Source of the DNA: Microthyrium microscopicum
Lineage: Eukaryota
DNA: 64,000 nucleotides
Direction: 5' to 3'
Assembly: GCA_010405405.1 (NCBI GenBank)
Contig: MU004231.1
Location: forward strand, 1,042,153 to 1,106,152
A program made the position numbers and the translations under genes. Position 1 is the stretch's first letter; each line of letters opens with the position of its first letter. This document shows positions 23,624-63,757 of the stretch, one piece after another. The notes under the pieces were generated by a model. The model was not told the DNA's origin, ran no database searches, and saw only the letters and a list, made by a program, of their open reading frames with translations.

Positions 23624-23708
23624 GGTCTAGAATTAGGCCCTCTGTTAAGACTGAGGCCCGATTTCAGTATTTACTATTACTAAGAGAGGGGGTCAAAATC
23701 TAGACCCT
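23624..23708. promoter_or_regulatory. Three RIP-altered dyad copies in the divergent promoter of patatin and the 23836 gene
   Basis: ggtct-agaatta-ggccc, ggccc-gatttca-gtatt, gggtc-aaaatct-agacc. Confidence 0.55.
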
Positions 23709-23835
23709 CTTATATTCCATTTACGCTTCCATAAAGAAATAGAGTTCACAATGTTTCGACATAACTAGAACTTACATACATACTAGAATACAAAATCTGA
23801 CAGCAATCCGAGATTGCGTTTCTATCGCAAGCAGA

Positions 23836-24378
23836 ATGAGCCGAAAAAGCCGTTCATCTACCTCGTACTATTAAGATTATCCTCTACTAGTGCTAAAAGA
23901 GAAAGTAAAAGATGCTAAAAAGCACCAAGAAAGCGAACAACTTGTGTACTTACCGGCATGCTCTCGCTGCGGCAAAAGCAGAAGACTGCGTACACGCATG
24001 GACGTAGTTGAAGCTTTAGATCAAATCATTTGCCGGAGACCAGGGTGCGAAAGACTCAAAGTTCTTATTAAGGATATGTCTAAGCTAGAAAATCTTATCA
24101 TAAACGTGAACCATTATCACTATGGCGAGTCTGTTCTAAAGGCAGTACCCTAGATTAAAGTCGCTAAGCTACCTAAAGGTAGCTCAGCCATGGGTCGGAT
24201 CGAATTACCTAACAAGCTGGCGAAATACGAGTACTTTAGAACGGAAAGGCCGTATCGACTTCGTACTATCCTTAAAGAGCCACCTCGGGTTAATCTTTCT
24301 ACGAAGCCGACACTGACAGAAATGATGTATACGATACAGCTAAAGAAGCGAGGGGCATACACGAAGGGTGCAATCTAG
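23836..24378 (+). pseudogene. Orphan CxxC / L(I/V)IN(V/I)xH protein with RIP stops; paralogue of 52227-53033
   Basis: One frame from ATG 23836 through ORFs 23890 and 24190, interrupted by TAA/TAG; LPACSRC...LIINVNHYHY...IELP. Confidence 0.6.
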
Positions 24379-24510
24379 GTTATTGTTAGTCTTCTACAAT
24401 TACTAAGTAAAGAAATGAAAACTATTAAGAGATATTCGCAGGACATTCTTGCGTGTTTAAATACTTATATAATTACATGCATTAATGCTAGTCTTTTAGA
24501 ATCTAGTAAG

Positions 24511-25006
24511 CTAAAATAACATAATATCGCAAATCAAGTTAAGATCAAGATTAGGTAGAGGAGGAAATACTAGTCCAGCTCTAGTTGAGCTCCGCAAATC
24601 CAGGTATCGGCTACCTACAATAAGGCTATTCTTCTCATCCCCTTCCATTTTATTATCTCTCTCTTTATAAGGCATCTCGATATCGCTCCCCATCTTATCC
24701 AGTAACTCGTTCTTGTTCAAGTCGTCCGATAGCTGCACCAGTCAGCCAAGGTAACGGCAACGGCGATGATGTATTACTTACAATGCTATCTATGTTCCTT
24801 AACCAGGGAATGTTACGCTTAGATCGAAGGGAATAAAACTCTTTTCTCGTTTGGTTGTTCCTGTCCACCTTCTCGAAAGCAATGAAGAGCGCTAGCTCAA
24901 CTCCAGGAAGCTCTGCGTACTCTCGGCATTTGCCTCTTAAAGGTCCGAATCGCCTTTTCTTCTTTTTGTTTAGTCTTTTACGAAGGCTGGGCTTTTGAGA
25001 AGGCAT
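24511..25006 (-). CDS. Divergent MADS-box (SRF-like) protein, 2 exons (25006-24782, 24732-24511), ~148 aa
   Basis: KKKRRFGPLRGKCREYAELPGVELALFIAF resembles the MADS core KRRxGLxKKAxELxxLxxxxVALII. Canonical intron GTAAGT...GCTGAC...CAG keeps frame. Confidence 0.6.
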
Positions 25007-25108
25007 ATCTGTTTGGGCGGTTAGCCATGTCAATGACTGCTTCAGTGAACTTATACTCCAAAGGGCCTTCGATTTCTTTAACCATCTGGAAGGAAGCACC
25101 GCCTCGAG

Positions 25109-25125
25109 GGACCATTTTCGGGACC
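25109..25125. promoter_or_regulatory. Dyad ~100 bp upstream of the MADS-like gene
   Basis: gag-ggacc-attttcg-ggacc-ctc, with complementary flanks. Confidence 0.6.
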
Positions 25126-25199
25126 CTCCCTTCCGAATGATGAAACGCCGGGAGCTGTCTGACTGCAGAAATTATTAATACGCAGTCCCTTGCTCTTCC

Positions 25200-26090
25200 T
25201 CTTCAACACTTTCGGGTGCAAATCCAGGTCACAATAGAGACTCTAGAAGGAATTACAGTGTCTGTTGGAATTATGGTTGCTCTTTCGACTCTCTAGAAGA
25301 TCATGTTATTCCTACCAGCTGAGTACGTATCTGCGGATAATCTTACTCTCTCGAGTTTATGTTCGAACCCCCACGCTTCATACCGGGCAGACAACAGGCA
25401 GCACGCGTCAATCCATTCGTTCAATTAACACTAGGAACCTTTCTTTCCATGACTCTTTTTGGTCAGAAGCGCGGAGAGTTCAGCCAATCTAAAAGCATCT
25501 CTTCGTCTAGCAAGACAGTTCTAGTCGGGTATGTGCCAGGCAGTTTGAGAGATCCATTCATCAAAAAAACTGACCATACCGCAAGGGTCGCGGACAGAAA
25601 TGCAGGAGTCATTGAAAATGCTAGACCGGTACGTTTGAGTAGATTCTCAATACATATATCTTCGCCGCGTCAAGACCTACAAAGAGCGCTCTGATACTCT
25701 TGGGGGGCGCATGGCATCCTCTAGTACAGAGAACAGTCTGTACAGGCAAGAAACGAGCATCAAGATCCGCAGAGCTGACAGAAAAATACTAGGTAAGAAC
25801 ATTGTTGGAGAGATAGACCTTCGTCCTGGACGAGAAACAACTTAGGATGGCGCTACAGCGAGATTGAACCCCGGCAAAGCAGCGGGCGCTAAACTTGAGA
25901 GTTTCATTGGATAGTTAATTGTTCCTGTCCCAAATTTAGCAAGTTCTAGCCGTTTTCCATGCATTCTGTAGATCCAACGAGTGTGGCTTAGCCGTTTTGC
26001 GGGGGTGATGCGGATCTGAAAGTTCCCGATGCACGAACCACTGGCCCTGCGACGATCGTGGCTTACAGGTCCACGTTTTGTTTCAAACAT
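25200..26090 (-). pseudogene. Hypothetical protein with several RIP-type stops
   Basis: MFETKRG... frame continues through TAA/TAG/TGA stops into SFFDEWISQTAWH...LNEWIDACCLLSARYEAWGF. Confidence 0.4.
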
Positions 26091-26898: not shown

Positions 26899-27249
26899 AA
26901 TAAGTTCAAAACGAATGGATGCTATAGTCAGTTGGAAAGTCCCAATTTTGGCCCCCCCCCTCAACCCTAGGCTTCCTTCCCACTGACATAACCATTCCAA
27001 GAGCGAATTTCTGAAACCTACTGCGCCATCATGGCAATTCGGTTTCCGTCCATGCAAATATTACTCCGTTCACCGCTTCAGAATGTGAAATCATATGCTC
27101 TAACTTGAATCATGATCCTAGCGATCGAAGCGCTTCGCGCCAATGATTTGCAAGAGAGCCCAAAGACTCGAAGAGTGCATCTACGGGTAGTCTCACGTGT
27201 TTATGAATTATTCATGGGCATTATTGACGCGGGATAATGATATTGAAAG

Positions 27250-27977: not shown

Positions 27978-29199
27978 AAATAAACCGATTTTCATGAGAT
28001 ATAGAATTGATGTGCCCAATCGTGATCGACTACCGGCAAGGGAAGCTTCCGTTCTAAATGTACCCCGATTTTGGTCTCAAGGTCCTGATTGTGGGCCTAG
28101 ACGCGCTCTAGATTGGAAATGGATGTGAACTCTTCCATCCGACCAGGGCAGATAGCCTGTGGTCAGCCCAACAATAGAAAGGGGCTGTGGATGTAAATAC
28201 ATTGCTTTCATTCGCCAGAAGAATGGACTACGTAAGCGATCGACAAAACCTGGGTCCCTGGCTTGTTGCGGCTCAGCCCCTGTTTCCTGTCGCGGGGTCC
28301 CTGTCTGCGGGTCAACTGCTAGATCGTCTATGTTTCGAAACAACGCCTCCCGTGTAGGCTTAATTCAACTTCAAAGTAAAACCAAGATATAAGTTATATT
28401 TTTTGTACGTGGACTGAACAGTTGCACGAATTTATTTGATGCACTATCTTCTCTAAGGTCACTCATCCGCCACTTCGTCTTCAAATTCTGAGTTCAGCTT
28501 CTTAAAATTAACGAGTGCTTCCTAAAGAGTTTTAACCACAAGTCGAACTTCTTTAAGTAAATACATGCTAGCACTATACTTTCTTTATTAGTACTAAAGT
28601 TCTTTGCTAAGCTGAGTATTCTCCCATTCCCTTTGTTATTATATAATGGAAATATCTAGGGTAGGCATTTTCTTTGCCGACTCTATTCTTCTTAAAGGTG
28701 GATCGCTCGCCGGGTGAGTGCCCTGCTTGCAGGGAGCTTAATTAACATTGTTCTTTAGGGGCGTGTCAGTATTAGCAATAGGGCGAATCTTAAGCTTATT
28801 GTAACTTAGCATAATGTTGTAAAGATTTTCTAGTTCTAATAGTGAACAATCTTTAGGCGCAAGAATTGTAAATATTCGTAAATCAAGGGCAAGTTCAATC
28901 TCGAAGAGTTATACTATTACACACTACTTCATACTATAAAGGTTACCTGATTCTGGACCCTCGAGCCACTCTGCAAGCATTTTGTCCCGTTTTTAGGGCC
29001 CTGAGCCACGCTGTCCTGCTTAGATGTTGAACTAAGAAGAGAGAAAATATAGAGTTTCGTTCGACATAGAAGAAATAGAGGTGTCATTGCAATGATTTAC
29101 ACAGCTAAACCAACCCAAATTCTATGTAATTACATAAATACATTAAGGAATATTACCTAAGCTTATTTGACTGGCCTAACTAATTGTTTAGCGGTCAAG

Positions 29200-29742: not shown

Positions 29743-30689
29743 AGTTGCGGTGAAATGTAGGTTAAATCCTAGAGTAAAGATAAAGAAACAAGTATATCAA
29801 TGAAGAAGTATAGACACGTGCTCTTAAGGTATAAGTATGCCAATACTAGAGCTCTCTCAATAAGCTTATTTATTGGATGCGTACCATCCGTTGCTTAGCC
29901 TTTAGGACCAAAATCTGCCCCCTAATTCAGGAAGCCTAACGCCTTTAAGTGCCCTTTTTCAAACCCCCTTCTAGCTTAAGATATAGTTGAAGACGAACGC
30001 TGCTATACTATACTAATACTACTGTAATAAGTATGTAGGAGTAAATTCAACTAAGGTTACGGCTCCATTGCTCTACTCTTAGAACCTCTCGACAAAACGC
30101 TTATATAATAAGATACTCTTTAGTATGTAGTTAAGTATATTGCATGGCTACAATAGCTGTAATTATTCCAAATTGAGAGTTTTTAGCCTTAACGATAGGT
30201 AGGCTACATCGTTTAAAACAAAAGAGATAGGGTTATTAACGTTTGCAGCCTTAACCTTGCATTGATAACGTTCGCTAAGAGTTAATAGATTACAGGGATT
30301 ATATAAACTATTAATAGCCTAGCTACGTCACCCATTAATTACAGTAAGCTTAAACTATAATTTTCAATCGAATTCTATATTCCTTAACTTAAGTAGCTAT
30401 GTTTTGGAGTCTCTAAGATCTAGAGGATTAACTAATAGGGGTCGACGCTCCTATATAAATAATTCCACTCTCGCAATACTACTAAAAGCTAAAATAGTAA
30501 TAACTAATTAAATTAGAATTAGTTACTAGAATGTAACGACTTAAAACTTAACTTACGTTTTAAAATACAAGCTTAGTAAGTAATTCTTATTACGTAATTA
30601 TTTAGTTCTAAATGCTATATATATACTCATTACTTCGTCTATATAAATATAACTTCACAAGGAATGCAGCGGAGACTCTCCTATTCCAC

Positions 30690-31485: not shown

Positions 31486-31803
31486 CGGCACAAGTAGTTA
31501 ATAACTACCGAACGTTAGTACGTTATGCAGGGTTATATAGGATTTAGAAAGAATATATTTAGCGTATAGATTATTAAACACTATTATAATTTGCTTTTTG
31601 TAATCTATCGTTATTTACTATAATTTGAAGTTAGTCTAAAGCCTTGCTGCTCCGACCTAAGGGTCTGGAACTAATCTAACTACTTACCTTAGTCGTTGTA
31701 CAAGACCGAAACTAGACTACCTCCCTAGGCTAGCTTATAAGGAGATAGCTAGTACTCTTAATAAGTCTTTTCCTATAGAGCCTAACTTAAATATTATATT
31801 AAA

Positions 31804-32820: not shown

Positions 32821-33169
32821 GGACATGGAGACCTTGTTCTTACCACACACGAGCTAATTAGGATTGTTGGTCACAGAAATGCAAGTAGCTTTGGCGTAAA
32901 CTATGAATAATTATTTTAAGAAAATATTGCTTTGCACTAAGTAAGCTAAGGTCTTGGTCCAGGAGCGGCACCGCCTCCATAGCAAGCTACTCCGCACTGC
33001 CCCCGCAGACAGGGTTCCCAGAACCAGGCCCCACCTGACCCATGCAAACCTCACAGCATTCTATGCAGAACAAAAGGCGTTACTTTCCTCTCCACTTTGC
33101 TGTCGTTGGCATCAACAAACTTGCAAAAATCTCAAGTCACACGTTTTTTCACCTCTTCACCTCTTCACC

Positions 33170-34728: not shown

Positions 34729-34771
34729 GTGCCCGATTTTGGGCCCTCCCTGTGAGACCGATTCCAGGCCC
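34729..34771. promoter_or_regulatory. Two dyads upstream of the GPI-protein gene
   Basis: gtgcc-cgatttt-gggcc and agacc-gattcca-ggccc. Confidence 0.6.
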
Positions 34772-35600: not shown

Positions 35601-36611
35601 GAGGAATGCTACCGTATGATGCTAGATTGGCAAGTCCCTTGAGGGCTAGGGTGCAAGCAGTTTGTAATTAGACGCTCCTCAATAGTCAATTTTAAAACGT
35701 TCCCAAACGAAAGATTTATCATCACGATAAAGGAGCCACATTGTTGCGACGTTCAAGGACAAATCACCCTTTGGCTTGAGAGAGAAGGATTTGTAATGCA
35801 ATACTCTCCGTGTCCCGATTTTAGGATTCAGCAATGCCATTACCTAGCCGGATCTTGTGCCATCCGCCGCTTGCTTATAAGAGGCTTTACGCAAGGCTGC
35901 CAACAACAATATCTCCCTCTTTATTAATGATTAATCCTGCACCGTCAGCGGAACGGCTTGCATCTAATATCTTACGGTAGATCACAGGAAGAGGCTAACA
36001 AAGGCTAATGGAGCAATTGGCCAATCGGAAGATAGAATGGAAAATGTGGAGGTGGCGCTATTTAAGGTTTGGCCCCTGCGTTTTGAGGCTGTGCGTCGTA
36101 TCTGCAGCGCGATCAAGGGCGCCCTAGCCCCACGAGGATCAGGAAGGAAGGCACTAAATGAGGCTGTGAACCAAACAAACTGAGATCCAAATTTGGAGAT
36201 ATTCACTTCCCATCCCCTAGCAAAACTTGAAACGTATAGTTCTCGGTGACTTGTTGCCCGGATTGGCAACATGCATTTGATTAGATAGCCTTGCATAGCT
36301 GAACACTCGGACGAGCGCGGCTCTGCAGAGTTAGCAAAGAACTGTAGATGTACTAGTATTTCATATCGACTAGGGTGGCATATTCTTACCGTAAGTTGCC
36401 TTACACACCATACACAGCTAGACGGCTATATTTATAACTAAGGCAAGACTGGATTATCTATAAAGTTGCAAGGTAAGTTAGGCGATACTCTATATAAGCA
36501 AAACAAACTACAAACTTTATAAAGAAAAACTATCTCTTTTAACTCAAAAACCTTTCTAAACACTTTACTATAGAAATTATACCTCTGCTACAATTACCTT
36601 AAGAAGAGAAA

Positions 36612-46773: not shown

Positions 46774-46844
46774 TTTTGAGGTGCTGGTGTTGGTGCCAGC
46801 AGCAGGCGTCAGGAGCGAGTTCCAGGAGCGAATGTAGCAGTTCT

Positions 46845-47178: not shown

Positions 47179-47195
47179 GGACCTTATTTCGGACC
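47179..47195. promoter_or_regulatory. Dyad upstream of the C2H2-JmjC gene
   Basis: ggacc-ttatttc-ggacc. Confidence 0.55.
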
Positions 47196-47760
47196 CCTCT
47201 CCGAAAAAGCGGTTTTAGGCGCGAGTAGTTGGTTTTGGTCCCCTCTCAACCTGGGTGTTGAACAAGTAATTGTGTTGTTGTCCATATAGATGAGATACAG
47301 TCTCCTACTAATATCTTTCAAAGGACTGCTATAATATTTCTTCCTCTAGTGACTAACCTAATCACTGTAACTCCCACTCTGACGGTAGCGGATCTGATAC
47401 ATTTCCACTTGTAAATTCGAACTCGTAAGCTTGAAGCCCACGAACCATGGAAGCGGTTTTAGTAGCGGTCTTGAGTAAAGCCACAAAAGAGGCACGACGC
47501 ATTCATCATCGAAGACGACAGTAACGGCCCAGTCACGATTCAGCAACACTGACGTGCAACTTTAGATCATATTAGGGTCATCACTTAGGGATGCACCAAC
47601 CACATCCATAGAAGAAGAGCAAAGCTGTGTTGTAGCTTACATTGAGAAGTTATTCAAAACGAGGTCATATCCTATAGAACTTCTACTTTATATTGTTCAA
47701 TTGCCATCTGTCAGAATCCGATAGGCATCAGGTCTGCCTTCTGCTCTCCTTCCTGAAAAC

Positions 47761-48660: not shown

Positions 48661-48757
48661 TTTGCTTGTGATGGCTTCAATAACTTGAAAGAATTTGGAC
48701 GGCAGAAGCTCATTCAGATGTTCCGGGAAGTGGATTCTGTTTCATTCGTGAGAGGGA

Positions 48758-48830
48758 GGTCCGGATTCAGACCCAGGGGTCCAAAATCAGGCCCTCTTAA
48801 CAATGACCACGCCATGCCTGATTTTGGACC
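48758..48830. promoter_or_regulatory. Three dyads in the divergent promoter of the tetraspan and helicase genes
   Basis: ggtcc-ggattca-gaccc, ggtcc-aaaatca-ggccc, atgcc-tgatttt-ggacc. Confidence 0.65.
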
Positions 48831-48938
48831 CCGCCGCTGCTGAGTGCTCTAGAGGCTTTTTGAAAGTACCATACGGTAGGTTATAGGTTTGAGCCGTTCA
48901 TACTTTTTCAAGTTACTCTGCTAGATCACAAGATCAAA

Positions 48939-51900: not shown

Positions 51901-52233
51901 CAAAATAGAGACATTGCTAACCAGCATAGGCCTCTGAACGAGTGTGGACACCGCTGCATGGCCAATTGCCATTCCGAACCATTGCACACGTCTTCCGAGT
52001 GTCATGAGCCGTGCGAGCGGGCTCTTGAGCATTGTGGCCACCCGTGTCGAAAAACATGCGGCGAGCCGTGTGGTCCCTGCACTGTTACCGTCTCGAACGT
52101 GCTCCTTCCTTGTGGCCATATTAAGAACGACCTCCAGTGCTATGCTGCTCAAGACCTGCGCGAAGTCAACCGCATATTCTCCACTCAGCGATGCAGTAAC
52201 ATACCATGCTCACACCGTGGATGCTCTCAATAA
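48939..52233 (+). pseudogene. ZNFX1/Hrr1-like UPF1-type SF1 helicase with NF-X1-like Cys-rich fingers, RIP-damaged
   Basis: One frame with TAG stops at 49263 and 50313. LIQGPPGTRKS (GKS>RKS), CHTNHALDQFLE, CKEAAEVLE (EEA>KEA), LIGDHEQLRP, QRRMRP, TIDNFQGEE, NRINILLSRAKH. After the intron at 51821, CGHRC..CH and CGHPC repeats. Confidence 0.85.
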
Positions 52234-53033
52234 CGGATTGCGGCACGCTCTGAGCGCATTCGACAGCCACTCGTAAATTGCTTCGCCTCTATGTCACCCA
52301 AATGTTTCTTATGCCGCACCACTCTCTCCACCAAGCTTCCAGACGGCTTCGTGGTTTCGTTGATTGTAGGCGGCGCTCGCTCATGAAGGTTATGGCTGTG
52401 GTCTAGCATTGCTTCCTCAGGATTCCGTTTCAACTCCTCTCCTGGCAACTCTGTGATACCTCTTGGAATGTCGCTGTGTCTAGGACGCTCGATGCTTCCA
52501 TTGGATGAAGAAGGCTTTGAAGGCTGGTTGTAGTAGTAGTTGTGATGGTGTATGTTGATGACTAGGTCTTTAGATGTGAGCGTGCTCTCTAGCCTAGTGT
52601 TGACCAACCGTTCCATTGGTTCGGCCTGTCTCTGTGACGTTCGACAATGGTAACACCTTTCGAATGGAAGGAATTCCTGAAGTAAGCCGTTCCCTAGATC
52701 TTGGACGTCTCTTTTGCTGACGTTATTTTGCCTTTTCCGATGTGACACAGGTCCAATGCACTCGTAATGACGGTTCTTGGTGTGACGATTCTTTCGGCTC
52801 GGTTCATCATCAAGATGTCGCTTTTCATATCGACCATTCTTCTCATTGGGTGTACTCCAGTCCGTCAAGAATCTGAGTTCGTCGATACCCTCAAGAATTC
52901 CCTCGACTCGATCGGCTCGCAAGCCGTGAATGATTTTTCTGACTGATCTTCGAAGAATTCGCAGGTTGCTATCGGCCACGCCGCGCTTCGGGGCATATTG
53001 GTTGTCACGGTTGAAGACCGACGTCCTGCTCAT
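52227..53033 (-). CDS. Orphan CxxC / LVINIHH protein, 268 aa
   Basis: Intact ATG ORF; LPFERCYHC...DLVINIHHHNYY...ITELPG. Confidence 0.6.
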   Translation of the reverse strand: MSRTSVFNRDNQYAPKRGVADSNLRILRRSVRKIIHGLRADRVEGILEGIDELRFLTDWSTPNEKNGRYEKRHLDDEPSRKNRHTKNRHYECIGPVSHRKRQNNVSKRDVQDLGNGLLQEFLPFERCYHCRTSQRQAEPMERLVNTRLESTLTSKDLVINIHHHNYYYNQPSKPSSSNGSIERPRHSDIPRGITELPGEELKRNPEEAMLDHSHNLHERAPPTINETTKPSGSLVERVVRHKKHLGDIEAKQFTSGCRMRSERAAIRY

Positions 53034-54058
53034 TTTAAGAGAATCGAGTAAGGCTGCCCCAGCTTTCTTTTAGTGCGATGGCCTATTCATGCCGTGGAGA
53101 ACACTCACATAAACGCCCGTGGATCAGGCGGCGGATGCTAGCACGACATGATAAATTGGCTAAGGATGCACATATATATCCACAGTCAGCAAAGTTCGTC
53201 TCGGCTATGTTGGTAAGAGCAGTCCACAAAAGCTCTGCAGGCGTATACCAATATGCCGCGTGTTGATGAGCTGCGCCATCAGCTCGGCTGGAGGCGTTTG
53301 CTTAGATGGATGCATTGAGTGAGAGGTGGATTTCCTGGTAGGCAAAAGGCTCAGAGGGGGCTTGGGCTTCCCAAGACTTCATCGTGCACGCATCCTGGAT
53401 TCACCGGTGACAAGACATACAACGCGGCCCTGAAAAGAGCAGTGTACCGCACGAGGGCGATGACCGACTCCAGGATATGCGGCCTCGTTCGTCCTGGGTT
53501 GGGTGTCCTGTGAGAACATATCGTTCAGATGACCTTGGGGCTCCCTTGTTGTGCTACGAGGCTGACGGGTTCATGATGAGCAGTTGTGGCAGCGACATGA
53601 ATCACCTGAAGCCCAACGAAGTGCATGAACAGATCAGCGTCAATGACAGTCTCACTTGACCTGAGGCGAAGCAGCGTCTCCTTGAAAAGCATGACACGTA
53701 GTACTAGTATACAAGAGGCGCAATCGCCTCTGCAGCACGGAATGACCCAGGAGTCTGCCACTGGGAGCTGGATATGTGCCAAAACCCGGTCATTACACGA
53801 AACATCGCCAGCCACTGAACCGTCACGAGAAGGAGGTGTCATCTAGCACTGCCGAGCATCTATGGACTCCAATGATAGTCAGGCACGTAATGAAGCCTCT
53901 GTGCATGTATTGGTATATATGCCTTCTTCTCACCTGTGATGCATGAAGTCCATCTCGTTCACGGAATACTTCAACTACCACTCTTGATTCCTGCCTTCTT
54001 CTTTGTGTGCTGAACTTCCTCGCCAGCGGAACTCTGCCTTCATTCTCGCTGTCTCACT

Positions 54059-54891
54059 ATGTGTCTCGCTACAGTTGCAACTTGTGGCCATTGCCAGCAA
54101 GAATCCTGCTGCGCGGTCAATATCTGCGCTGAAGCGAAACGATTGGGAATGATACATATTGCCAAGTCCATTCCAGAGAATCGCCCGACCATTGAAATCG
54201 CAAATACTCAAACAGATAATCCTTTCCTCAAGGTTTACCCGGTAATGGAACAAGAGCGCATTCAAGTCTCGCGCTGCAGTCATTGCGACGGGACGTCTGT
54301 TTTGAAGCAAGGACTTTTGCGTGCGGAAGAGGCCCAGCAACAGCCCGCTACAAATGATTTGGCGAACGCTTTGGACGCATTCTTCGGCTTTGACGTGAAC
54401 CGTAAGTGGTGTGCCGAGTTGATAAGCAATCTGCTAATAAATCAGTATTGCGCTTGATTCTACCAAAGCTAAATGAGCTTTCACATCATACGAACTGGCT
54501 GAGGAGAGAGAACATGGCCCTGAAAAAGGACAGTCTGATCCTCAAGAAGTGTCTTGATATCCATAGAAGAGATATCTATCAGCTCAAAGGTTCTCAGATC
54601 TTCCGGCATGTTGGAGAGCATGATGATAGACTTGATGAGGTTGATGAAGAGCTTGACGATTTAAAGGCAATACTTGAGAAGCATTCAAAGAGAATTCAAC
54701 ATTATGAGGACTTGGAGAATGCAAAGGAGAACATACGAACTGATGATTGGAAAGCAACACTTGAAAATCACTCAAAGAGGATTGAACAGCTTGAATGCCT
54801 AGAAGGCGCAATGGAGAAGATGAAAATTGATGAGGCCAAGACAGACGCGACCGATGAGGTAGAGTGGGAACATGCTAGTTTCATGGAATGA
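54059..54891 (+). CDS. Cys-rich N-terminus plus coiled-coil protein (exons 54059-54401, 54446-54891)
   Basis: MCLATVATCGHC...CSHC. Intron GTAAGT...GCTAAT...CAG joins the two ORFs in frame. Duplicated LKAILEKHSKRIQ / WKATLENHSKRIE. Confidence 0.7.
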
Positions 54892-55087
54892 CCAGATGCG
54901 CGCATCATGTTATTTGAGCTTTGGGAGGCGGAAGATGTTGTCTAGTTACTTATGGGAGTTTGGCATCTAAATGGCAGTTGATTTGAACAGTACTATGCTT
55001 CACCGGGCTCGGCTGCCTCAGGCCATCCCCTCATTCTCTCCTTGCCCAACTTCAGCCGCTCAGGGCCAACACCAACACAAAATTTCA

Positions 55088-58000
55088 TCAGCTGAGTTTG
55101 AGGAGTTTTCTTGCACTTTGTGGCACCTCAGAATCGTTTTCGTTACTGCCGTTTCCGTTGCTGCCTTTGCCATTGCTATCGTTGCCATTGTTAAGTTCCC
55201 ACTTTGGAATCAAGTATAGTGTATTCTCGCCATCTGCAATGGCATCCTCAAAACACGTCCCTACCTTTACCATTCGCTCATCTTTGGTATATGTGTATAT
55301 AGGTTCATGCTTCCTCATATATTTTACCACAAATCGCTCAAGCTCACTCGTGTCGGAAGGGTCTACGGAAAGAGTTTGTAGTAATCTCCATTTTCCGTGA
55401 TCCCTAATTTTGAAATGTATATCAACCGGCCGTTGTGTTGGTGTTTTCAGATTCGACGTGGAGGTTGAGGTGTCTCCTGCTGCTACAGCCTGAAGCTCCT
55501 GGGGAATGGCCTGCTCACCTATGTCTTCTTGGATCTGCGGCACCGAAGCTGAACTGCGACTTTCTGCCGTTTGTTGAGTCACCGATTCCGCGAGCTTGCT
55601 GAAATCAATCCTCGTCGCTCGCTTTCGGTTCTTTTGAATCGCGCTAGGAGAACTTGTAGTCTGCTTCTTGTCACTTTTGTCTCTTGCAGGGTTCGGTTGC
55701 TAATTGCCGCGCTCCTCTGCTTTTTTCTTCCTCTTTTGCTCCATCCTTGTGAGCCTCTCCTGTTCGACTTTCTGCCTTTCTTGTTCAAGTCGCAATAGCT
55801 CGAGCCTTTCGTCCTCCTCCTGCCTCTCTTGTTCAAGCCGTACTTGCTCGAGCCTGTCCTGCTCGGCCTGCCTCTCTTGTTCAAGCCGTACTTGCTCGAG
55901 CCTGTCCTGCTCNNNNNNNNNNNNNNNNNNNNNNNNNNNNNNNNNNNNNNNNNNNNNNNNNNNNNNNNNNNNNNNNNNNNNNNNNNNNNNNNNNNNNNNN
56001 NNNNNNNNNNNNNNNNNNNNNNNNNNNNNNNNNNNNNNNNNNNNNNNNNNNNNNNNNNNNNNNNNNNNNNNNNNNNNNNNNNNNNNNCTCTCTTGTTCAA
56101 GCCGTACTTGCTCGAGCCTGTCCTGCTCGGCCTGCCTCTCTTGTTCAAGCCGCAATTGCTCAAGCCTGTCCTGCTCCTTCTGCTTCTCTTGTTCAAGCCT
56201 TACTTGCTCGAGCCTCTCTTCTTCGGCTTTCTGCCTCTCTTGTTCAAGCCGCACTTGCTCAAGCCTCACTTGCTCAAGCCTTTGCCTTTCTTGCTCTTCA
56301 CGCCTTTTCTGTTCGAGTCTCCCCTGTTCCTCCCTTGCTAATCGTGCTCTCCATTGCTCCTGCTCTTGTCTATTCTGTTCCACCAGTCTTCCCTGCTCTT
56401 CCTCAATAAGTTTCTCAAGCTTCTCGCGTAAGGCGCGATTAGGCTTTCCAAAGAAAGCAAAATACACAGATCGTCGGATAAAGAAAGAGGTTACTTCATC
56501 ACTTTAATCCTCGCGAATGCTGTATAACTTCTCTAGAAACAGGGACGATTTGTCAGCTCTATATATCCCGGTCTGTAGGATTCCTTTTCTTTTCAGTGTC
56601 TTCAGGTAGCCTTCGAAATCCATCATAGTTTCGTCCTCTCTTTTTTCGGCCGTAGAGAAGAATCTGACCATCTATTCCACGAAGTTTGCAAAAGCGGCAT
56701 CATCATATTTATATCGGGTTGGGTCCCGAGCCTTAAGAAGAGCTTTACGAGCAATCTCCTCATCAAGGAAACGCTAAATCTAGTAACGAATCTCCTCAGA
56801 CTCAAATCCTAGACGGTAGGCAAGAGAGGCGAACTCGCACCCAATGCGTTCGTTTGGTTAACTCCTCAGTTTTGCTACCAGACTGTCATCCTCTTTCTCA
56901 AGGAGCATTTCGAGGTAATCACGCATAGCGCTAATCCATATCTGCAAGACTCCCAGTTCAAGTCGATCTAACCTGTTTCCTGGTATTGATATAAAAGTTG
57001 ATCCCAATCGCTGAATGATGCACCAGTCAGTCTCTTGATTGCCATCTAAGAAGATCCTTTCCAGGGCAGATGGCACAGTTTCATCCGGCCATAGTTCCAC
57101 CAGGGCTTTCACACAATCGGCTAGACCTTTCAAATAGTAAACATCTACGAAAAAGCTTAAGAGAGACAGAATTAGACGGTCGGTCGTCTCAGATAGTATA
57201 TCTGTCCATATTGCTTCGCGTTCTCGCTCGGTAAACGCGCCGAATATTTTACCGTCTCGCAATTAACCGTATAGAGATAGGCGATCTGACCTGCAAGCGC
57301 CAGGGGCTTTAAGCTCAAGAGCTTTCACGTCAGCCCGACTCACCTTTAGCATCGCTTGCCTATCTCCTCGAAAGATTTTCGTCCAGAATTCCCTAATGTT
57401 GTCATCCAGATAGGATAGCATCAACTAAAAGGTCAGTACATCCACGTAGTCATCCGGAAGAAGTCTTACCTCATGGCATTTCATCCCGAAAACCTTGTGC
57501 GTTAAGCCCAAGCTCATTCCTCCCCCAAGCCCAGGGACGTCCAGCTGAATGTCGAACGCTGCCCTGAAGTCAGGATTTCGGATAATCTGCTTCATATTAT
57601 CGGATTTATGGCTAGATATTCCATGCAAAAGAGCCCACCATCGGCTTTCAAAGTACGGGTTCCCTCCACCTCCATATCCTTGGTATTCTCGGATTTTGCG
57701 GTATATCTCGCCATCATCCGGTTTTTTTTCACATGAATATTCTTCAATCAGGGTTGTCTTGAGATCGTCACTAAGATCTGTATATACTTGGTGAGATATG
57801 TACGCAGGTTCGGAGATGGGAGCATACCTGAATCATACAAGTCGACCGTCCATCGTGTGGTTCCACGAGAAGCTTTAGCCGCAAGAGCTCGATGCTGGCC
57901 ACGGAGGCAACTCAGAAGGAATCCAGCTGTGAATTCAAGCTGCAGGTGTCCATCACGCGCTTCAAGCAGTGCTTCCGATGAGATATTCGAACGCTCCAGT

Positions 58001-58242
58001 GCGGCATCTAGCTGGTCCTGTCGTATCACAGCAGGAATGTGGTTGAAAATATCCCAATCACGACAACCTTTCTGCTTTTTGAACAGTTTCTCGAGCCTTT
58101 CGGTATTCTTTTCGTCTTCGTCTCTTATCTTTTTGAATGGAAAGTCCAGGACCGCAATATCAACGCTTGCTGTGCCTCTGAACTTGGTACTGAGCTCTTC
58201 GGCAAGCCTTCGCTCCTGTTCAACAAATCGTCGCCGTGACAT
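55088..58242 (-). pseudogene. DUF3723-type Starship-associated protein with E/Q/R coiled-coil repeat; several RIP stops
   Basis: KFRGTASV...NTERLEKLF..GC....NHIPAVI...LSCLRGQHRA...WTVDLY, EYSCEKKPDDGEIYRKIREY, LELKAPG, FAYRLGFES, YFAFFG. Frame continues through TAA/TAG into ORFs 55700 and 55088. Confidence 0.8.
55775..56290 (-). repeat. 48-bp coding tandem repeat (EQERQAEQDRLEQVRL)n spanning the assembly gap 55913-56087
   Basis: ctgcctctcttgttcaagccgtacttgctcgagcctgtcctgctcggc is repeated on both sides of the gap. Confidence 0.85.
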
Positions 58243-58333
58243 CTGGACATCAACGTTCAAAAGTACAATGACTCCGAGCTACTCCTTCCATAAGCACGAT
58301 ATAAAGCTCACTCTTCCTACCCAACGACCAGCC

Positions 58334-58365
58334 CTTAGGGGGGTCCAAAACCGGGACCCCCTAAG
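58334..58365. promoter_or_regulatory. Extended near-perfect dyad in the divergent DUF3723/pseudokinase promoter
   Basis: cttaggggggtcc-aaaaccg-ggaccccctaag. Confidence 0.7.
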
Positions 58366-58465
58366 ATGGCTTTTTAGGATCGCTCGAGCCCAGTTCTCTA
58401 AGCCTCTAGCTAGCTATTCTATATTCTCTACCGGTCACGTAGCACCGCCAAATATCAATTTCGCG

Positions 58466-59697
58466 ATGGATTCTCTCTCTGAAAAACGGCGAACACAGAT
58501 AGACTTCAGAAGACTAAGACCCGGTCCACGCCCCCAAAACAGCGTGCCCCTCGGGAACATTAAAGAGCTTAGAGATGAAGAGGAATATCATCGTATTAAC
58601 GATTCAAGGCTCAAAGAAAGTCCCGTAAACATTTTACACCGGAAGATAACTCAAGAGATTGGAGTAGCTCGTACCACAAACTCGAAAGAAGTTAAGCTTC
58701 CCGAAGTTACCCCATCCGGCGTCAGTGATCATGAGTATTTGAAACCAGCATTTGACTCCCCGTGGCAGAAGTACGAAAAGTTACATGACATTCGACTTGG
58801 GGCGGATAACCTCTACGTCACAGTGGCCGATCGCAAAGATACACACTGGAAGTCCAAGACGCGAAATGATCCTTTCCTAACCCTGGCCTTGGTGAGGAGT
58901 TTCGTAGGATCGAACTTTGAAAATAAGATTCGGGAGTTTCAGCAGATACAGCACGTGGGCATCGTCTCGGTCCTTGAGATTTTTAGGTCTCAGAGCTCTG
59001 ACGAAACTCATCACGTCGTTTTCGAATACATGGCGTATTCCCTCCACTACGTTGCCGGTAATCCTCTCCTTGATGAGAAACGGCTGGCTGCTATAGTCGC
59101 ACAGGTAAGATGTCCCTAGCGAGTAGCTATCCTCGAAGTAACTGACAGCAACAGATCATCCATGTGTTCAAATACCTGTCATCATTACAGGCATTGGATC
59201 ATGGTTCGTTGACTTGCGCTAAGCACGGGCTGTTGACCTGCTCAAGCATCCTCATTCATCCATGCGGAGATGTCAAAATTCGTCACCCACTCCTATCAAA
59301 TCATTTGTCTCCCGAAGAACGCGCCATTAGCAAGGAATGTTGTGAATTGCGACCTCATAGCAACATAGAATCTCGATACATCAGAGCATTAGGCATGACT
59401 ATTATGGAGTTGATGCAAGGCTACCCCAGAGAGGACGGAGCTGTTGGTGTCGAAGATCTATATCGTTGGCCGTCTGACTGCAACGCTGTCAGTTTCCTCT
59501 CTACAACAGTTACCGCCACTTCATTGCTTGAATTGACAAAGGTAAGTCGATTCTACCAATCAAGCCCCAGTTTGTACCAGTCTAATGTTCCGTAGCATCC
59601 GCTGTTGCGCCTGCCTTGGCGGAAGGAAATGCTCCAAGGGCTGGTGGCTTTCGTGTCCGTAGGGACCCGCATCGGCACCAGGTATCCATCTAAATAA
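58466..59697 (+). CDS. Protein kinase-like fold protein, probable pseudokinase (exons ~58466-59104, 59155-59541, 59596-59697)
   Basis: SPWQKY, IQHVGIVSVLEIF, HVVFEYMAYSL, HGLLTCSSILIHPCGDVKI, IRALGMTIMELM, HPLL. No HRD or DFG. Confidence 0.7.
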
Positions 59698-59805
59698 TAA
59701 GACAGAATTGCTTAAACTCAATCGAAGTTTGCCACATTCGTTACGTATCAATATCACGGAACGACTTCTAAAGTGTGCCGCAAGTCGTTTGGCTAGGTGC
59801 GAGGG

Positions 59806-59859
59806 TGTCCAAAACCGGGCCCCTTTACTTCACGGCACTCATGGTCCCAAATCTGGACC
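59806..59859. promoter_or_regulatory. Two dyads upstream of the FRE-like gene
   Basis: tgtcc-aaaaccg-ggccc and ggtcc-caaatct-ggacc. Confidence 0.65.
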
Positions 59860-59948
59860 CCCTGACATGCCTAAGCTCCAAAGCGTATATTTCCCATGTC
59901 AACCTCTGTTTTCATGTCCTATGATCATACTGACCCTTCCTCTCAATT

Positions 59949-61739
59949 ATGGATGTTACACAGGCGTATGCTATAGCCGCTGGCTGTGGCCTTTTCTGCC
60001 TTCTGCTCTTCAGAACCCGTCATTTGATGAAGTCGCTCTTGAAAACCGTAGAACTCAGAACTTCACAATTTCTCATCTACCCGCAGCTGGTTCGTCGGCA
60101 CCGATACCTTGGTCCTTGGAGTTGGGCTGGATTGTTGGTACCGGCCGGTTATATCGCCGTAAACATGTTTTGCGTTGGCTTCAAAGCCTCATCTCTGCGC
60201 GTGGCCAGCTTACGAGCTGCGGATCTGGCCTTGATTAACTTGATACCAGCCTTCGCCAGTCTTCACTTGAACTTTCCAGCGGATGTACTTGGGCTGACAC
60301 TGAAAACATATCGTAGATTCCATCGTGTACTTGGAGCCATGTCATGTTGCCTGCTAGCCTTTCACGTGTTTACCAGCTTAGCCAGCAGAACACCCTTCCC
60401 CTTGGACCAAATGGAGAATCTATGGGGGCTCATTGTAAGCATTTCATCTCCCATTACTCATCAAAATCTAACCTATGACAGGGAGCTTCATCTGTCGGTC
60501 TCCTCTTTCTCCTTTCTACACCTTTTCTTCGCAGATTATTCTACGAAGTTTACCTCCGTATCCATCAGTTACTAGCTGTCCTTCTCATGTATTCGATTTG
60601 GCAGCACTTGCGGCTGAAACTATGGCCTGAACAGTTTCATCCCCCTCAACTGTACGTCTATATTTCAGTATGGACATTTCTCGTCCTGTCACTTCTCCAA
60701 TTTGGGGCAATAATCTACAGAAATTGGCCAGTACGCTCGGCATATTCCCGAGCTTATATCTCTCACGTCGATGATACGGTCAAGATACGCTTGAAACTAT
60801 CTCGACATTTGAGAGTTGAACCAGGGCAATATATCTCTTTGTGGATGCCGACGATGAGCTTTTGGTCTTTTCTGCAAAGTCATCCGTTTACGGTAACTTC
60901 GTGGGCAGAAGGAAAGCAGGACTCGTTAGATCTCCTCATAGAACCCCGCGGAGGCTTCACACAAAGACTTCTTCTCAATAGCAAAGCGGCTCGAAAAGCT
61001 GGGGGCAGACTTCAACCACGTCTAGCTCTGTTCACCGGCCCGTATGGGACTAGTGCGTCCGTTAATCGATACGAGACGGTCGTCATGGTAGCTAGTGGTT
61101 TTGGCATAGCTGGGCAGCTACCTTACCTCAAGAAACTGATATACGGGTACAACACTTGCACAACTAGAACTCGACGAGTCCATCTGGTGTGGCAATTGGA
61201 AACGATTGGTAAGCCTCCAAACTCATCCATTGCGAAAACCTAACTCACATTGGTAGACATTGGAATTGCAGCACAATCCTACCTGAACGACGCTTTAACA
61301 GACGATCTGTTAGATGACGGCAATGTAAGCAACACAGATTATATCGATAACATACGTACTGACGAGAGCTAGATCCTTGGCATCTCGATATATATCAAGA
61401 TTGGGAAACTAGACAGTGCTTCCTGGGGACGCCGTGCTGTGTGGTATAATGGATCTGCAGATCTTCGCGCGATCTTACAAGATGAGATGTCAGGGAAGTA
61501 CATCAATAGGATGCAAGGTGAGGAACGAGGATCAATGCTAGTCATAGGTAAGTGTGCAACCAACTCAATTGACAAACTACTAATGCCGTATAGCTTCGGC
61601 AACGGATGAAATGAGAGACAATCTACGGGAAATAGTCCGTGGTCATTTGAAAGACAAAGTCCGCCTACTGGAACTAGAATACCAGCCGGTGACATCGGAA
61701 AGCGTAGCATCAAAGGCCACGGAAAAGTCATGGCGGTGA
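59949..61739 (+). CDS. Ferric reductase / NADPH-oxidase-like membrane flavocytochrome (Starship FRE type), multi-exon, apparently intact
   Basis: Heme His pairs RFHRVLG...AFHV and YEVYLRIHQ...WQHL; FAD motifs PGQY and QSHPFTV; NADPH motifs GPYG and VASGFGIA; C-terminal ELEYQP. Confidence 0.85.
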
Positions 61740-62105
61740 TTAATGGGAAGGCAATGAACCGCGATAGCTAGCTTGATTGTTTGATTTGTCAGTCTTCGTA
61801 GGTAACCAATTAGTTCGATCCTAGAATGTAATGTGCAAGTCCATGTTGTTCGCAAACCTTTGTGCTCCAGATACTAGTCTAGCGATGATGCCGTTTCTAC
61901 TACCGTGATTCACTGTAACGATAGGATTTCAGATTGATCGTAACTTCTCTACTGTACTGCAGGGTCCAGTTTCGGACCACTCGGGATAAACGTGGTTATG
62001 GTGGCGAAGCCAGGCTTGACAGTTCGCGGTCTTGGCATTCAAAAGGGGCCGAAACTGGGACCACCTCCACGATATAAAAAAATCCGTGTTCTTTCAATAA
62101 TGCGG

Positions 62106-62216
62106 TCAAATCAAATCAAAGCCTTGAAATGCATAGAACAACACATAAGCTAGCCAGATTGCAATAATGCATAAGGAAACTACTAGAGGAAGTAAACCAA
62201 CCGAATGAGTAAACAT
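62106..62216 (-). CDS. Putative 36-aa single-TM micro-protein
   Basis: MFTHSVGLLPLVVSLCIIAIWLAYVLFYAFQGFDLI*. Confidence 0.35.
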   Translation of the reverse strand: MFTHSVGLLPLVVSLCIIAIWLAYVLFYAFQGFDLI

Positions 62217-62276
62217 AGAGATGTGAACGAGATGTGAACGAGTCGACGGAGCTTCGCGAGTTGAAGCTGAGTCGGG

Positions 62277-62550
62277 CTCTCCACGGAGCTCCTCTCTCCT
62301 CGAAGAGTCTCTCCACAGAGATATTCTCTCCTTGAAGATCATCTCTCCTCGGCTGTTCTCTCCATGGAGAGAGTCTCTCCTTGGAGAATCTCTCCGCAGA
62401 GCTCTTCTCTCCACGGAGAGGTCTCTCCACGGAGAGGATCTCTCCACGAAGACATTCCCTCCTCGGAGACGTCTGTCCACGGAGAGAGTCTCTCCACGAA
62501 GAATCTCTCTCCATGAAGAATCTCTCCACGGACCTCATCCCTCCATGGCG
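62277..62550. repeat. Array of ~16 degenerate palindromic CTCTCC-AC-GGAGAG units (15-18 bp)
   Basis: tctctccacggagag and variants, head to tail. Confidence 0.85.
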
Positions 62551-62972
62551 ATCTATCATGTCATCATTCTCACGAGTACGCTTGATATCCGCTTATAAAC
62601 AATCTTTTGCCTTGCACATCTCCAGTCCAATCCGAGTCTCATTTATCTGCTGTTCAGCAAAATTATGACACCGCGCGATCGCGAGCTTGCTAAGTATGGT
62701 GAACCACAGAATCCCTGAATTGGATCAGGTCAAGTCATGCAGCTATTCGGAGTTCTGTAACCTTGAGGCTGCGGAATTAGCTAGCACTATCTATTTAGCC
62801 AGTTGGGGTTCTAATTGTGTCTCTTTTCCAATTGCTTCTTGGGTTTCTGCTTATAACATGCTAAAGCACCGGAGATGGGATTGCGCACTGAAATGCTAGT
62901 ATTGATCTCATTGAAAATATTTCGATACACGTGTAACACCTGAAACTCCCACCCTAGCAATTTATCTATAGA

Positions 62973-63566
62973 TTATCCCATATTCCTGCAAGTGACGGCT
63001 CCCAAAATCCTCCACATGAAGTTCACAATTCCCCATTCGCTGACCTTTCTCGCGCACAGTCTCTCGGCTTCCTGTCTGACTGCCTTGTCGAATTCGTCTG
63101 GCGACTCAATCAGAGTTATGCCGAAGCGTTCGCAAACTATCTGGACGTTGCCCTTCCGAAGAAACCCATCCGGACAGCAAACGATCAATTTTCGGTCTTT
63201 CGCATGATGACCTAATTCCAGGAGAGTAATCGGGGATAGCTTTTCGGGGTGTGGGTCGAAGTACATAGCAATGATATCACATTGCTCAAGATGGTCCATT
63301 TCCCAGTCGACTTGTTCTTTGAATTTGGGGTTTGAGATATCTTGCTTCAGGTTGGGATCGAATTTGTTGCCTTCTTGGTCACAGCGTGGATTGTACACCA
63401 CTATAGGCAAGTCTGAGAGCATCTCTGCCATCTTTCTCTGCCAGGGAGGGGCCGTCCCCATATTTATGCTCCCAGCGAGGAAGATGGAACGAAGAGGCTT
63501 CTTGGCGAGCCTGGTTGGTGGTTGAACATGCTTGTTGAAAGGCTGTTGTTGGATCTTGGCCGGCAT
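62973..63566 (-). CDS. Nucleoside 2-deoxyribosyltransferase-like protein (Nuc_deoxyri_tr2 type)
   Basis: IFLAGSI.MG.A..WQ, VYNPR, QVDWEMDHLE..DIIAMYF, SPITLLELG, VCCPDGFLRKGNVQIVC. Confidence 0.8.
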   Translation of the reverse strand: MPAKIQQQPFNKHVQPPTRLAKKPLRSIFLAGSINMGTAPPWQRKMAEMLSDLPIVVYNPRCDQEGNKFDPNLKQDISNPKFKEQVDWEMDHLEQCDIIAMYFDPHPEKLSPITLLELGHHAKDRKLIVCCPDGFLRKGNVQIVCERFGITLIESPDEFDKAVRQEAERLCARKVSEWGIVNFMWRILGAVTCRNMG

Positions 63567-63732
63567 CCTTGGGGTGTGCAAGTGGATATTTGTAGATGTG
63601 ATTTTTGACGGTTTGAGCTTCGTAGAGATTTTGGTTCTGAGTAATTATGAAGCTCTTAGATTTCGTCCAGTCCTTGCTCTTCTTATACTGACTCTGGCCT
63701 TCTGAAATCCTCGTCGTCGTGTGGCTTGCCCA

Positions 63733-63757
63733 CAGGGGTCCATTTCTGGGACCCCCT
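63733..63757. promoter_or_regulatory. Dyad ~170 bp upstream of the NDT-like gene
   Basis: aggggtcc-atttctg-ggacccc. Confidence 0.6.

Follow-up and report, generated by a model that had tools for sequence, protein, structure and literature searches.

This analysis concerns a 64-kb stretch of the Microthyrium microscopicum genome (64,000 nt; assembly GCA_010405405.1, contig MU004231.1, positions 1,042,153 to 1,106,152), hereafter the window, which likely belongs to a giant eukaryotic transposon of the Starship type. A short word of two boxes, GGNCC-N7-GGNCC, occurs non-randomly in this DNA. It keeps one fixed spacing, lies 5' of genes that are unrelated to one another, and sits between flanks that share no homology. 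We give a probability of about 0.5 to a reading in which the word serves as a promoter-proximal protein-binding site and thereby joins many of the element's genes in a travelling regulon. An earlier note on the same DNA had described the word as a 17-bp dyad, GG(T/C)CC-N7-GG(A/C)CC, present in more than twenty copies, and had proposed that a dimeric factor uses it to co-ordinate the element's genes.

Recurrence and form of the word

The enrichment scans cover the 64-kb window, and the analysis as a whole rests on this one window, together with a few mis-called open reading frames (ORFs) of relatives and one RNA assembly. GGYCC-N7-GGMCC has nine strand matches at six places, against 0.03 expected from dinucleotide shuffles of the window; with up to one mismatch the strand matches number 27, where 1.94 are expected and the largest shuffle has 7. 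With both box centres left free, GGNCC-N7-GGNCC is found exactly at eight places (25109, 28081, 47179, 48778, 58342, 59843, 62046, and 63737). As a control independent of the earlier note's site list, we compared all twenty-one spacings from 0 to 20. Pairs of GGNCC occur at 0, 1, or 3 places at each of the spacings 0–6 and 8–20, compared with eight at N7, so that the non-random recurrence and the fixed spacing proposed earlier both held up.

GC content in the window is strongly mosaic, and shuffling within 200-bp blocks preserves this mosaic. In such shuffles the exact N7 sites average 0.3 with a maximum of 2, against the eight observed, and sites with up to one mismatch average 8.8 with a maximum of 17, where the window has 25. 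Once two mismatches are tolerated, the N7 sites are not enriched over these shuffles (135 observed, 111 in shuffles). An AAA or TTT run lies in the spacer of seven of the eight exact sites (0.065 expected) and of eight of the seventeen one-mismatch places (1.4 expected). Counted over the eight fixed letters, the twenty-four listed starts divide into eight exact copies, nine with one mismatch, four with two, two with three (23655 and 28061), and one with four (31703). On the strength of the enrichment counts and the excess of spacer A-runs, about fifteen sites are credible independently of their neighbours. Some of the weaker ones are credible only through a strong neighbour 20–40 bp away, and it is doubtful that 23655, 28061, and 31703 are real copies. 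Of the starts in the earlier tally of more than twenty copies, seventeen are exact or one letter off, and the other seven, including these three, are weaker.

The recurrence does not extend beyond the word. When the sites are masked, their flanks (100 bp on either side) share only matches of 10–12 nt with E-values of 0.05–0.8. These are at chance level. The flanks are thus not homologous, as the earlier note had claimed, and the motif is not part of a miniature inverted-repeat transposable element (MITE), a long terminal repeat (LTR), or another longer repeat.

Oriented by its A-rich strand, the full site reads (G)GGGTCC-AAAAYCR-GGVCC(C)CT. It is 17–21 bp long and asymmetric. The third and fourth spacer positions are A in twenty-two of the twenty-four sites and are conserved as well as the boxes; the sixth is C in fourteen of the twenty-four. 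Spacer variants include AAAATCA, AAAACCG, GAAACTG, and CAGAAAT, among others. The outer GG and CC letters are conserved as strongly as the inner ones. Since GGNCC is its own reverse complement, the term 'dyad' rests on the G-run at the left and the C-run at the right; the letters at the box centres are complementary in four of the seventeen good sites, which is the chance level. The dyad of the earlier note is thus correct as two GGNCC boxes at a fixed N7, but the site is not a true palindrome and its spacer is asymmetric. It is best described as two boxes, read separately and set one helical turn apart, that enclose an asymmetric A-tract and form no hairpin. We had considered a hairpin and rejected it on the chance-level pairing of the box centres and on RNA folding of eight sites: 58342 (z -3.2) and 63737 (z -2.3) fold better than shuffles, and the remaining six do no better than shuffles (z -1.7 to +0.5). 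Searches for Rfam families and tRNAs gave no match.

For locating further copies we used a scoring matrix trained on the earlier note's sites, which is circular and serves for location only. With it, motif density is uneven: there are no matches of at least 12 bits in the approximately 8.5 kb of GC-rich DNA within positions 1–23600, where about six would be expected at the density of the remaining window and where a SET-domain gene lies. This scarcity is a hint that the motif may be restricted to the element. Allowing for repeat-induced point mutation (RIP), a tolerant search finds no copies in the two deep AT blocks of the window and two in a partly AT-enriched block (0.12 expected), which is a minor result. 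Besides the doubtful relic 31703, positions 30538 and 31239 may hold RIP-like relics.

Outside the window, a scan of other DNA with GGGGTCCAAAAYCRGGVCC gave four single matches in viral contigs and sixty-six metagenome loci. Across these seventy loci (428 kb) there are three further matches of at least 14 bits (L023, L043, and L044), which is the chance rate. No fungal relatives were found among the seventy loci, most of which are GC-rich and, judged by composition only, probably bacterial. One of them, the bacterial metagenome contig L023, has at 2560–2760(-), immediately upstream of the gene for a large serine recombinase, two tandem exact copies of GGGGTCCAAAATCGGGCCC together with a TTTTC repeat enclosed by inverted GGACCCCCGGG arms. 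The motif copies there are a chance likeness or an unrelated operator.

Sites, genes, and the element

All strong sites are intergenic, and thirteen of the twenty-four lie 79–322 bp upstream of an assignable start codon, measured from the site centre to the ATG. The strongest is the exact site GGTCC AAAACCG GGACC at 58342..58358(+), which lies within inverted arms of 12–13 bp. It stands at the middle of a 223-bp divergent region, common to a DUF3723 gene (ATG 58242, -; distance -108) and a kinase-like gene (ATG 58466, +; -116). Two sites in the sense of the ferric reductase gene FRE precede its ATG at 59949, one with one mismatch at 59806..59822(+) and 135 bp upstream, the other exact at 59843..59859(+) and 98 bp upstream. 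The nucleoside deoxyribosyltransferase gene NDT (ATG 63566, -) has an exact site in its own sense 179 bp upstream, at 63737..63753(-), with TATAAG about 45 nt downstream of the site. Three sites cluster before the helicase ATG at 48939: 48758..48774(+), with one mismatch (-173), 48778..48794(+), exact (-153), and 48814..48830(-), with two mismatches (-117). A possible tetraspan start lies on the opposite side of this cluster.

An exact site at 47179..47195(-) precedes, in the same sense, the RNA-supported gene for a C2H2-finger protein (ATG 46884; -303). Near it, at 47225..47241(-), the circular matrix gives 13.7 bits to a half-site-like copy (GGGGACCAAAACC...) that is not in the earlier list. 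Further to the left, two one-mismatch sites precede a Ser/Thr-rich ORF resembling glycosylphosphatidylinositol (GPI)-anchored proteins (ATG 34842), at 34729..34745(-) in the opposite sense (-105) and at 34755..34771(+) in the same sense (-79). A cupredoxin-like ORF (ATG 33170) has a two-mismatch site at 33015..33031(+), 147 bp upstream, and a one-mismatch site at 26938..26954(-) lies between a coiled-coil ORF (ATG 26624, -; -322) and an ORF at 27306(+). Last, the exact site 25109..25125(-) lies 111 bp upstream, and in the same sense, of the ATG of a MADS-box-like ORF that we return to below.

The remaining eleven sites have no assignable gene. They comprise a cluster at 23.6 kb (23624..23706, +), made up of 23624 with one mismatch, the doubtful 23655 with three, and 23690 with two; the sites of a partly degraded stretch at 28–32 kb; and the pair 61962 and 62046. 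The 28–32 kb stretch holds the exact site 28081..28097(-) and its weak three-mismatch neighbour 28061–28077, two weaker sites in partly AT-enriched DNA (28943..29000, -; 28943 with two mismatches and 28984 with one), a one-mismatch site at 29905..29921(+), and the doubtful four-mismatch relic 31703..31719(+). The ORF at 61369–61731(-) is not a gene, because the last introns of FRE(+) pass through it; 61962..61978(-), with one mismatch, and the exact 62046..62062(+) therefore lie 3' of FRE (stop 61737–61739). They are just upstream of TATAAAAAAA at about 62072; site 62046 lies about 10 bp upstream of it and in front of a region of 17/49-nt repeats. TATA-like boxes are present downstream of sites 62046 and 63737.

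Within clusters, neighbouring sites are 20–46 bp apart, or 84 bp for 61962 and 62046. The A-rich strand matches the gene sense at six of the seven sites in one-directional contexts. Neither of the convergent 3'–3' gaps (about 51.8 kb and 62.7–62.9 kb) contains a site, and 49000–58300, nearly all gene bodies, has no match of at least 12 bits to the circular matrix. The earlier note had placed most sites 40–400 bp upstream of start codons of unrelated genes, often in clusters of two or three. The gene starts of the window bear out the 5' intergenic position, the unrelatedness of the genes, and the clusters, and the distance is right for the thirteen sites above, though not for the eleven without a gene. 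That most genes carry the motif is roughly right for the window, but at least two RNA-supported genes do not.

Three sites appear to be retained, in part, in diverged copies of this DNA. The evidence comes from relatives' ORFs that were mis-called in frame through the upstream region, so that conservation is read in translated letters, not in DNA. Two relatives of the MADS-like ORF (P0008 and P0009), which are 62–63 per cent identical over the aligned ORF, both keep site 25109, translated as ...RFI(S/H)RKEGSRKWALEAVLRP... where the window has RFIIRKGGSRKWSLEAVL-P. The site itself translates to GSRKW(A)LEAV in the relatives and GSRKWSLEAV in the window. Only one residue differs inside the site, Ser having become Ala, and this change affects the right box at its free middle letter. 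The approximately 25 residues that follow, up to the start codon, diverge and include an indel. At the helicase cluster, P0034 is a 77 per cent identical copy of ORF 48634–48840 that has lost one G of a G-run and from there on follows the next frame of the window. At 48778 and 48814 its residues would fit unchanged sites, and at 48758 RSGF has become RPEV, which keeps both boxes and alters only a box centre and the spacer. These footprints are coarse, since the conserved block at 25109 spans about 65 nt and conservation also extends over the linker that joins 48778 to 48814. The block at 25060–25171(-) reaches about 20 nt to each side of site 25109 (RFI.RK ... LEAVL, with CTCGAG), and there may be constraint beyond the 17-mer there. 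For the ORF over 58342, the sole relative (P0012) begins just after the site, so the site is not read through in it. The alignment of a contig from run X21 breaks over 58304–58371 and over 61821–62018, which may reflect sequence divergence.

We searched seventy-six ORFs of at least 90 amino acids (aa) in the window against Pfam. The matches include the SET-domain gene (9862–11757, -), a C2H2 finger (46423–46944, -), the helicase (49266–51821, +), the DUF3723 gene in three frames (56861–58278, -; E-values 1e-26, 6e-30, and 3e-20), NDT (62976–63644, -), and FRE, with FAD_binding_8, NAD_binding_6, and Ferric_reduct at 59934–61240(+). A claudin-like tetraspan ORF (47764–48378, -) matches below the Pfam cut-off. 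Among the labels given earlier, MADS-like is supported as a lead, but patatin, lytic polysaccharide monooxygenase (LPMO), and JmjC have no Pfam support, and the supposed pseudokinase has no Pfam match.

Gene models were refined with run X5, which is RNA: its contigs skip stretches of 46–65 nt bounded by GT..AG or CT..AC, and twenty-seven of the twenty-eight aligned ones are at least 99 per cent alike to the window. X5 has no cover over, for example, 48586–49819, and we draw nothing from such gaps; contig depth is likewise unsuited to ranking genes. FRE (59949..61739, +) has four introns in this RNA and the kinase-like gene (58466..59697, +; stop at about 59697) has two. A spliced contig with two introns gives the C2H2 gene model (45584–46799 and beyond, -; ATG 46884), whose product, the earlier 'JmjC', has a single N-terminal C2H2 finger followed by about 250 residues without a Pfam match (45584–46884). 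Two further genes are supported by RNA joints, one at 52203–53053(-; ATG 53033) and one with alternative joints at 53109–55848(-).

Some genes of this copy are probably degraded. The helicase frame (48864–51821, +; AAA_11/AAA_12, ZNFX1-like) contains in-frame stops at 49263–49265 and 50313–50315 and is probably a pseudogene here; a copy in run X6 is about 95 per cent alike. The DUF3723 match is divided among the frames 56861–57262, 57428–57832, and 57751–58278, although the RNA contig that spans them shows no joints, and the gene is probably frameshifted. Tandem arrays lie inside or beside genes at 55772–56293, 62277–62532, and 46890–46975; 48-nt units flank a run of N at 55913–56087, units of 17/49 nt (CTCTCCACGGAGAG...) follow downstream of site 62046, and 23-nt units repeat in the 5' part of the C2H2 gene. 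The deep AT blocks (14000–22500 and 36500–45500; GC 15–27 per cent) contain internal duplications, such as 36702/41254 and 41028/45328, and are probably RIP-degraded transposon copies that separate the gene-bearing parts.

Several features point to a Starship. DUF3723 and FRE, both recognized by Pfam, stand next to each other in the window, and one study names DUF3723 beside FRE as the usual Starship auxiliary pair (PMC13562431). Part of the 7.8-kb region 56200–64000 is present in all twenty-four runs listed, which span at least sixteen organism labels as well as sand and soil metagenomes; the copy in run X6 is about 98 per cent alike, with 126 differing letters in 6.1 kb of its contig. Among homologues that are 81–91 per cent identical to the MADS-like ORF, the source names Microthyrium and Verruconis appear. 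With near-identical copies under many organism labels and these homologues, the region fits a horizontally spreading element, and the sequences suggest recent horizontal spread of 56200–64000. The captain tyrosine recombinase (DUF3435) was not found among the seventy-six ORFs; it could be located beyond the window or within DNA degraded by RIP. Nor does the window show the ends of an element. Because no captain was seen, the Starship assignment of the earlier note is kept as likely. Relatives of the DUF3723 and helicase genes were sought in viral contigs, and none were found.

A candidate reader and competing explanations

The element encodes a plausible reader for the word, the divergent MADS-box-like ORF at 24698–25006(-), of which these 103 aa represent at least the first exon. 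Its nearest clusters in the ESM-Atlas are Ascomycota 'MADS-box' clusters (scores 0.89, 0.87, and 0.86; 197, 195, and 186 shared features), in which 43–45 per cent of the members carry SRF-TF (PF00319). A profile search of 1.84 billion representatives recovered twenty-three relatives. Eleven of twenty distant relatives scanned have sub-threshold SRF-TF matches, all on profile positions 12–48, and no other Pfam family recurs among the twenty. Searched against the PDB at E <=10, the profile of the twenty-seven-sequence family returned only SEPALLATA3 (7nb0, E 6.6e-4) and MEF2A (1c7u, E 0.38). At the level of profiles, the ORF is kin to MADS domains.

A homodimer model of residues 1–80 scores 0.59, compared with 0.05 for the best of three controls; the runs agree in at least 65 per cent of contacts, and the predicted local distance difference test (pLDDT) of the partner is at least 70. 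The homodimer mark is reached by twenty-one of thirty proteins solved as same-chain pairs and by none of twenty-three solved as single chains; among eukaryotic proteins it is reached by seventeen of twenty-nine, and by one of the seven without an older solved relative. In the model the interface is formed by a basic helix (12–30) and a strand (33–45), as in MADS dimers. The model thus supports pairing of the chain without showing it; because MADS dimers have already been solved, the score may reflect known structures and speaks for likeness only. The earlier note's claim of a dimeric factor accordingly gains a MADS-like dimer candidate encoded in the element itself, with binding as a prediction.

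Related genes recur in other Starships. On glucose/xylose, the captain of the Starship Logos h1 of A. fumigatus is reported to rise together with freB, a MADS-box transcription factor, DUF3723, and a kinase (10.1101/2024.06.28.601215), and the Starships of A. oryzae and P. biforme are listed with MADS genes in their cargo (PMC13562431; 10.64898/2026.07.27.740988). We met no mention in these studies of a DNA motif common to the genes. On profile kinship and the dimer model, the MADS-like protein is the best candidate reader of the motif, although we hold this identification tentatively and would sooner expect it to fail than to hold. MADS dimers bind CC-(A/T)6-GG, a sequence similar in form to the CC-N7-GG core of the motif. 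Several observations weigh against the assignment: the ORF has no SRF-TF match in Pfam even at E <=5, and the SRF-TF scores of its relatives are 12–18 bits against a cut-off of 26. The motif core, moreover, is CC-N7-GG in all sites instead of the CC-N6-GG of MADS proteins. An N6 reading is also possible in eleven of the twenty-four sites through an extra C or G, yet exact pairs number one at N6 and eight at N7. The sixth spacer position is mostly C, and the outer GG and CC letters carry the same weight as the inner.

If the word is indeed a protein-binding site, its geometry suggests how it might be read. The GGNCC boxes are 12 bp apart, approximately one helical turn, and could be contacted by the two halves of a dimer, with the A-tract spacer adding DNA shape or contacts in the minor groove. 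Where two or three sites cluster, occupancy 40–100 bp upstream of TATA-like boxes would be cooperative. Since an exact, conserved site at -111 precedes the MADS-like gene itself, we propose that the protein at 24698–25006 may autoregulate. An element-borne reader would let one promoter code function in each of the element's many hosts. The fullest form of this proposal is a portable transposon circuit in which the MADS-like dimer autoregulates and, in any host, uses a new 17-bp CC-N7-GG class of site to switch on DUF3723, the kinase-like gene, FRE, NDT, the helicase, and some of the cargo; we consider it speculative and rather doubtful.

Some observations sit poorly with an element-wide regulon in any form. 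Beyond the eleven sites without an assignable gene and the RNA-supported genes without a site (ATG 53033, -, and the long 53109–55848, -), orientation is mixed within clusters, with 48758 and 48778 on the forward and 48814 on the reverse strand. The conserved stretches at 25109 and between 48778 and 48814 are wider than the motif. RNA contigs of X5 pass through 58342, 59806, 59843, and 63737, so that some sites may be transcribed; this read-through does not place them in mRNA, because unstranded contigs can merge adjacent transcripts.

The main rival is a host transcription factor with targets throughout the genome, in which case the element's genes would carry ordinary promoters and there would be no element regulon. 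We regard this as a live explanation, though on the unlikely side. The restriction to the element that we propose is not forced by anything observed here. The flanking half-sites hold runs like AGGGG/CCCCT, which resemble general stress elements, and sites precede genes for secreted and membrane proteins besides the Starship auxiliary genes. A host factor fits less well with the GC-rich DNA of 1–23600, where genes are present and strong matches are not. Because the stretch is found under many organism labels, such a factor would also need to be conserved in every host, whereas a plausible reader is encoded in the element itself and is preceded by a conserved site. Should the motif prove to be genome-wide, it would belong to an ordinary host factor, and what remains would be a new fungal promoter motif.

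Three other explanations are much less probable. Functionless leftovers of a short sequence spread by mutation or transposition, such as footprints or micro-repeats, would account for the seven copies with two to four mismatches and for the relic-like copies in AT-enriched DNA. They would not be expected to have non-homologous flanks, a spacing unique among twenty-one, and a confinement to 5' intergenic positions, nor to be retained at three sites in diverged copies, one of which changed only at unconstrained letters; we consider this origin improbable. It is less probable again that the word acts in RNA as a stem-loop of the 5' untranslated region, with a GGNCC/GGNCC stem and an AAAAUCR loop controlling stability or translation. 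The four sites under RNA contigs, the agreement of the A-rich strand with gene sense, and the two sites that fold well all suit a stem-loop, but the chance-level pairing and the poor folding of the other six do not, and single sites serve divergent gene pairs, clusters hold both orientations, and Rfam has no match.

Starships are moved by tyrosine recombinases (PMC10104507), and the sites could in principle be recombinase core sites (of the captain, for example), in which inverted arms around a 7-bp overlap mark cassettes or recombination points. Inverted boxes around a conserved asymmetric 7-bp spacer do recall such sites. The core sites compared were lambda att, loxP, and FRT. The arms here are only 5–7 bp long, however, and the spacers differ between sites, which would block strand exchange between tyrosine recombinase sites. 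The sites also cluster 20–40 bp apart and track promoters rather than cassette ends, the window has no captain, and the motif strings are absent from the one supplementary file of a Starship survey that we searched. Of all the explanations we weighed, this one seems to us the least probable. A promoter-proximal binding site shared by many of the element's genes remains the reading we prefer.

Comparison with known systems and implications

In sequence, the word resembles the CArG boxes and serum response elements (SREs) read by SRF, Mcm1, MEF2, and SEPALLATA3. These are CC/GG dyads around an A/T-rich centre, found in promoters and read by dimers, with flanking letters that add to the site; the SRE of c-fos reads GTCC-ATATTA-GGAC. 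The word has the same CC/GG layout, its spacer is A-rich in part, and it would likewise be a promoter site read by a dimer. The element that holds the sites also contains a MADS-like gene. The differences are an N7 instead of an N6 spacing, a strand-asymmetric spacer that is mostly C at its sixth place, and outer letters that are equally conserved. The candidate reader also departs from SRF-type proteins, being a very divergent protein of about 100 aa that falls below the Pfam cut-off and whose binding is predicted. Because the site departs from the 10-bp CArG spacing and the protein falls short of the Pfam cut-off, we file neither the motif as a CArG box nor the protein as an SRF-TF member.

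Other comparisons concern the arrangement of the genes. The regulator AflR controls a fungal secondary-metabolite cluster through TCG-N5-CGA sites, and as in such cluster-specific systems a putative regulator is encoded within a gene block that has a short dyad before most of its genes. The present block differs in being a mobile element that crosses species, in the unrelated functions of its genes, and in having a MADS-like candidate instead of a Zn2Cys6 protein. Master activators of integrative and conjugative elements (ICEs) and phages offer an analogy for the mobile setting: there the element carries both a regulator and its operators, and the program is therefore portable between hosts. 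The window would match this in having operators and a candidate regulator on a mobile element, with the differences that the promoters are eukaryotic, that no link to excision or transfer has been seen, and that no captain promoter is visible in the window. In Fusarium, effector-gene promoters contain mimp MITEs, which derive from transposons, measure about 200 bp, and have homologous bodies. Like these, the word is a short repeated sequence that marks promoters in an accessory compartment; unlike them, only 17–21 bp recur here and the flanks are unrelated.

We found no description of the motif in a search that covered the literature on Starships, DUF3723, MADS proteins, and cis-regulation as well as the motif strings, with bioRxiv supplements outside its range, in line with the earlier note's statement that none was known. 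What would be shared with known biology is the kind of feature, a putative transcription-factor site common to a gene block. New are the sequence class of the site, the eukaryotic giant transposon that would harbour it, and its link to a recurrent MADS-like cargo gene.

To our knowledge, neither the control of Starship genes nor what the auxiliary genes DUF3723 and FRE do is known. An operator common to the genes, with an element-borne reader, would provide an experimental handle on the whole gene set through one word or one small gene, and the motif could serve as a sequence signature for related elements and their regulated cargo. If the portable circuit with the MADS-like dimer is real, it would be a eukaryotic counterpart of the ICE master regulator, and it would explain why MADS-box genes recur beside DUF3723 and freB in the Starships of Aspergillus and Penicillium. 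A shared operator and its reader would also be a mechanism that keeps transferred genes expressed in a new host.

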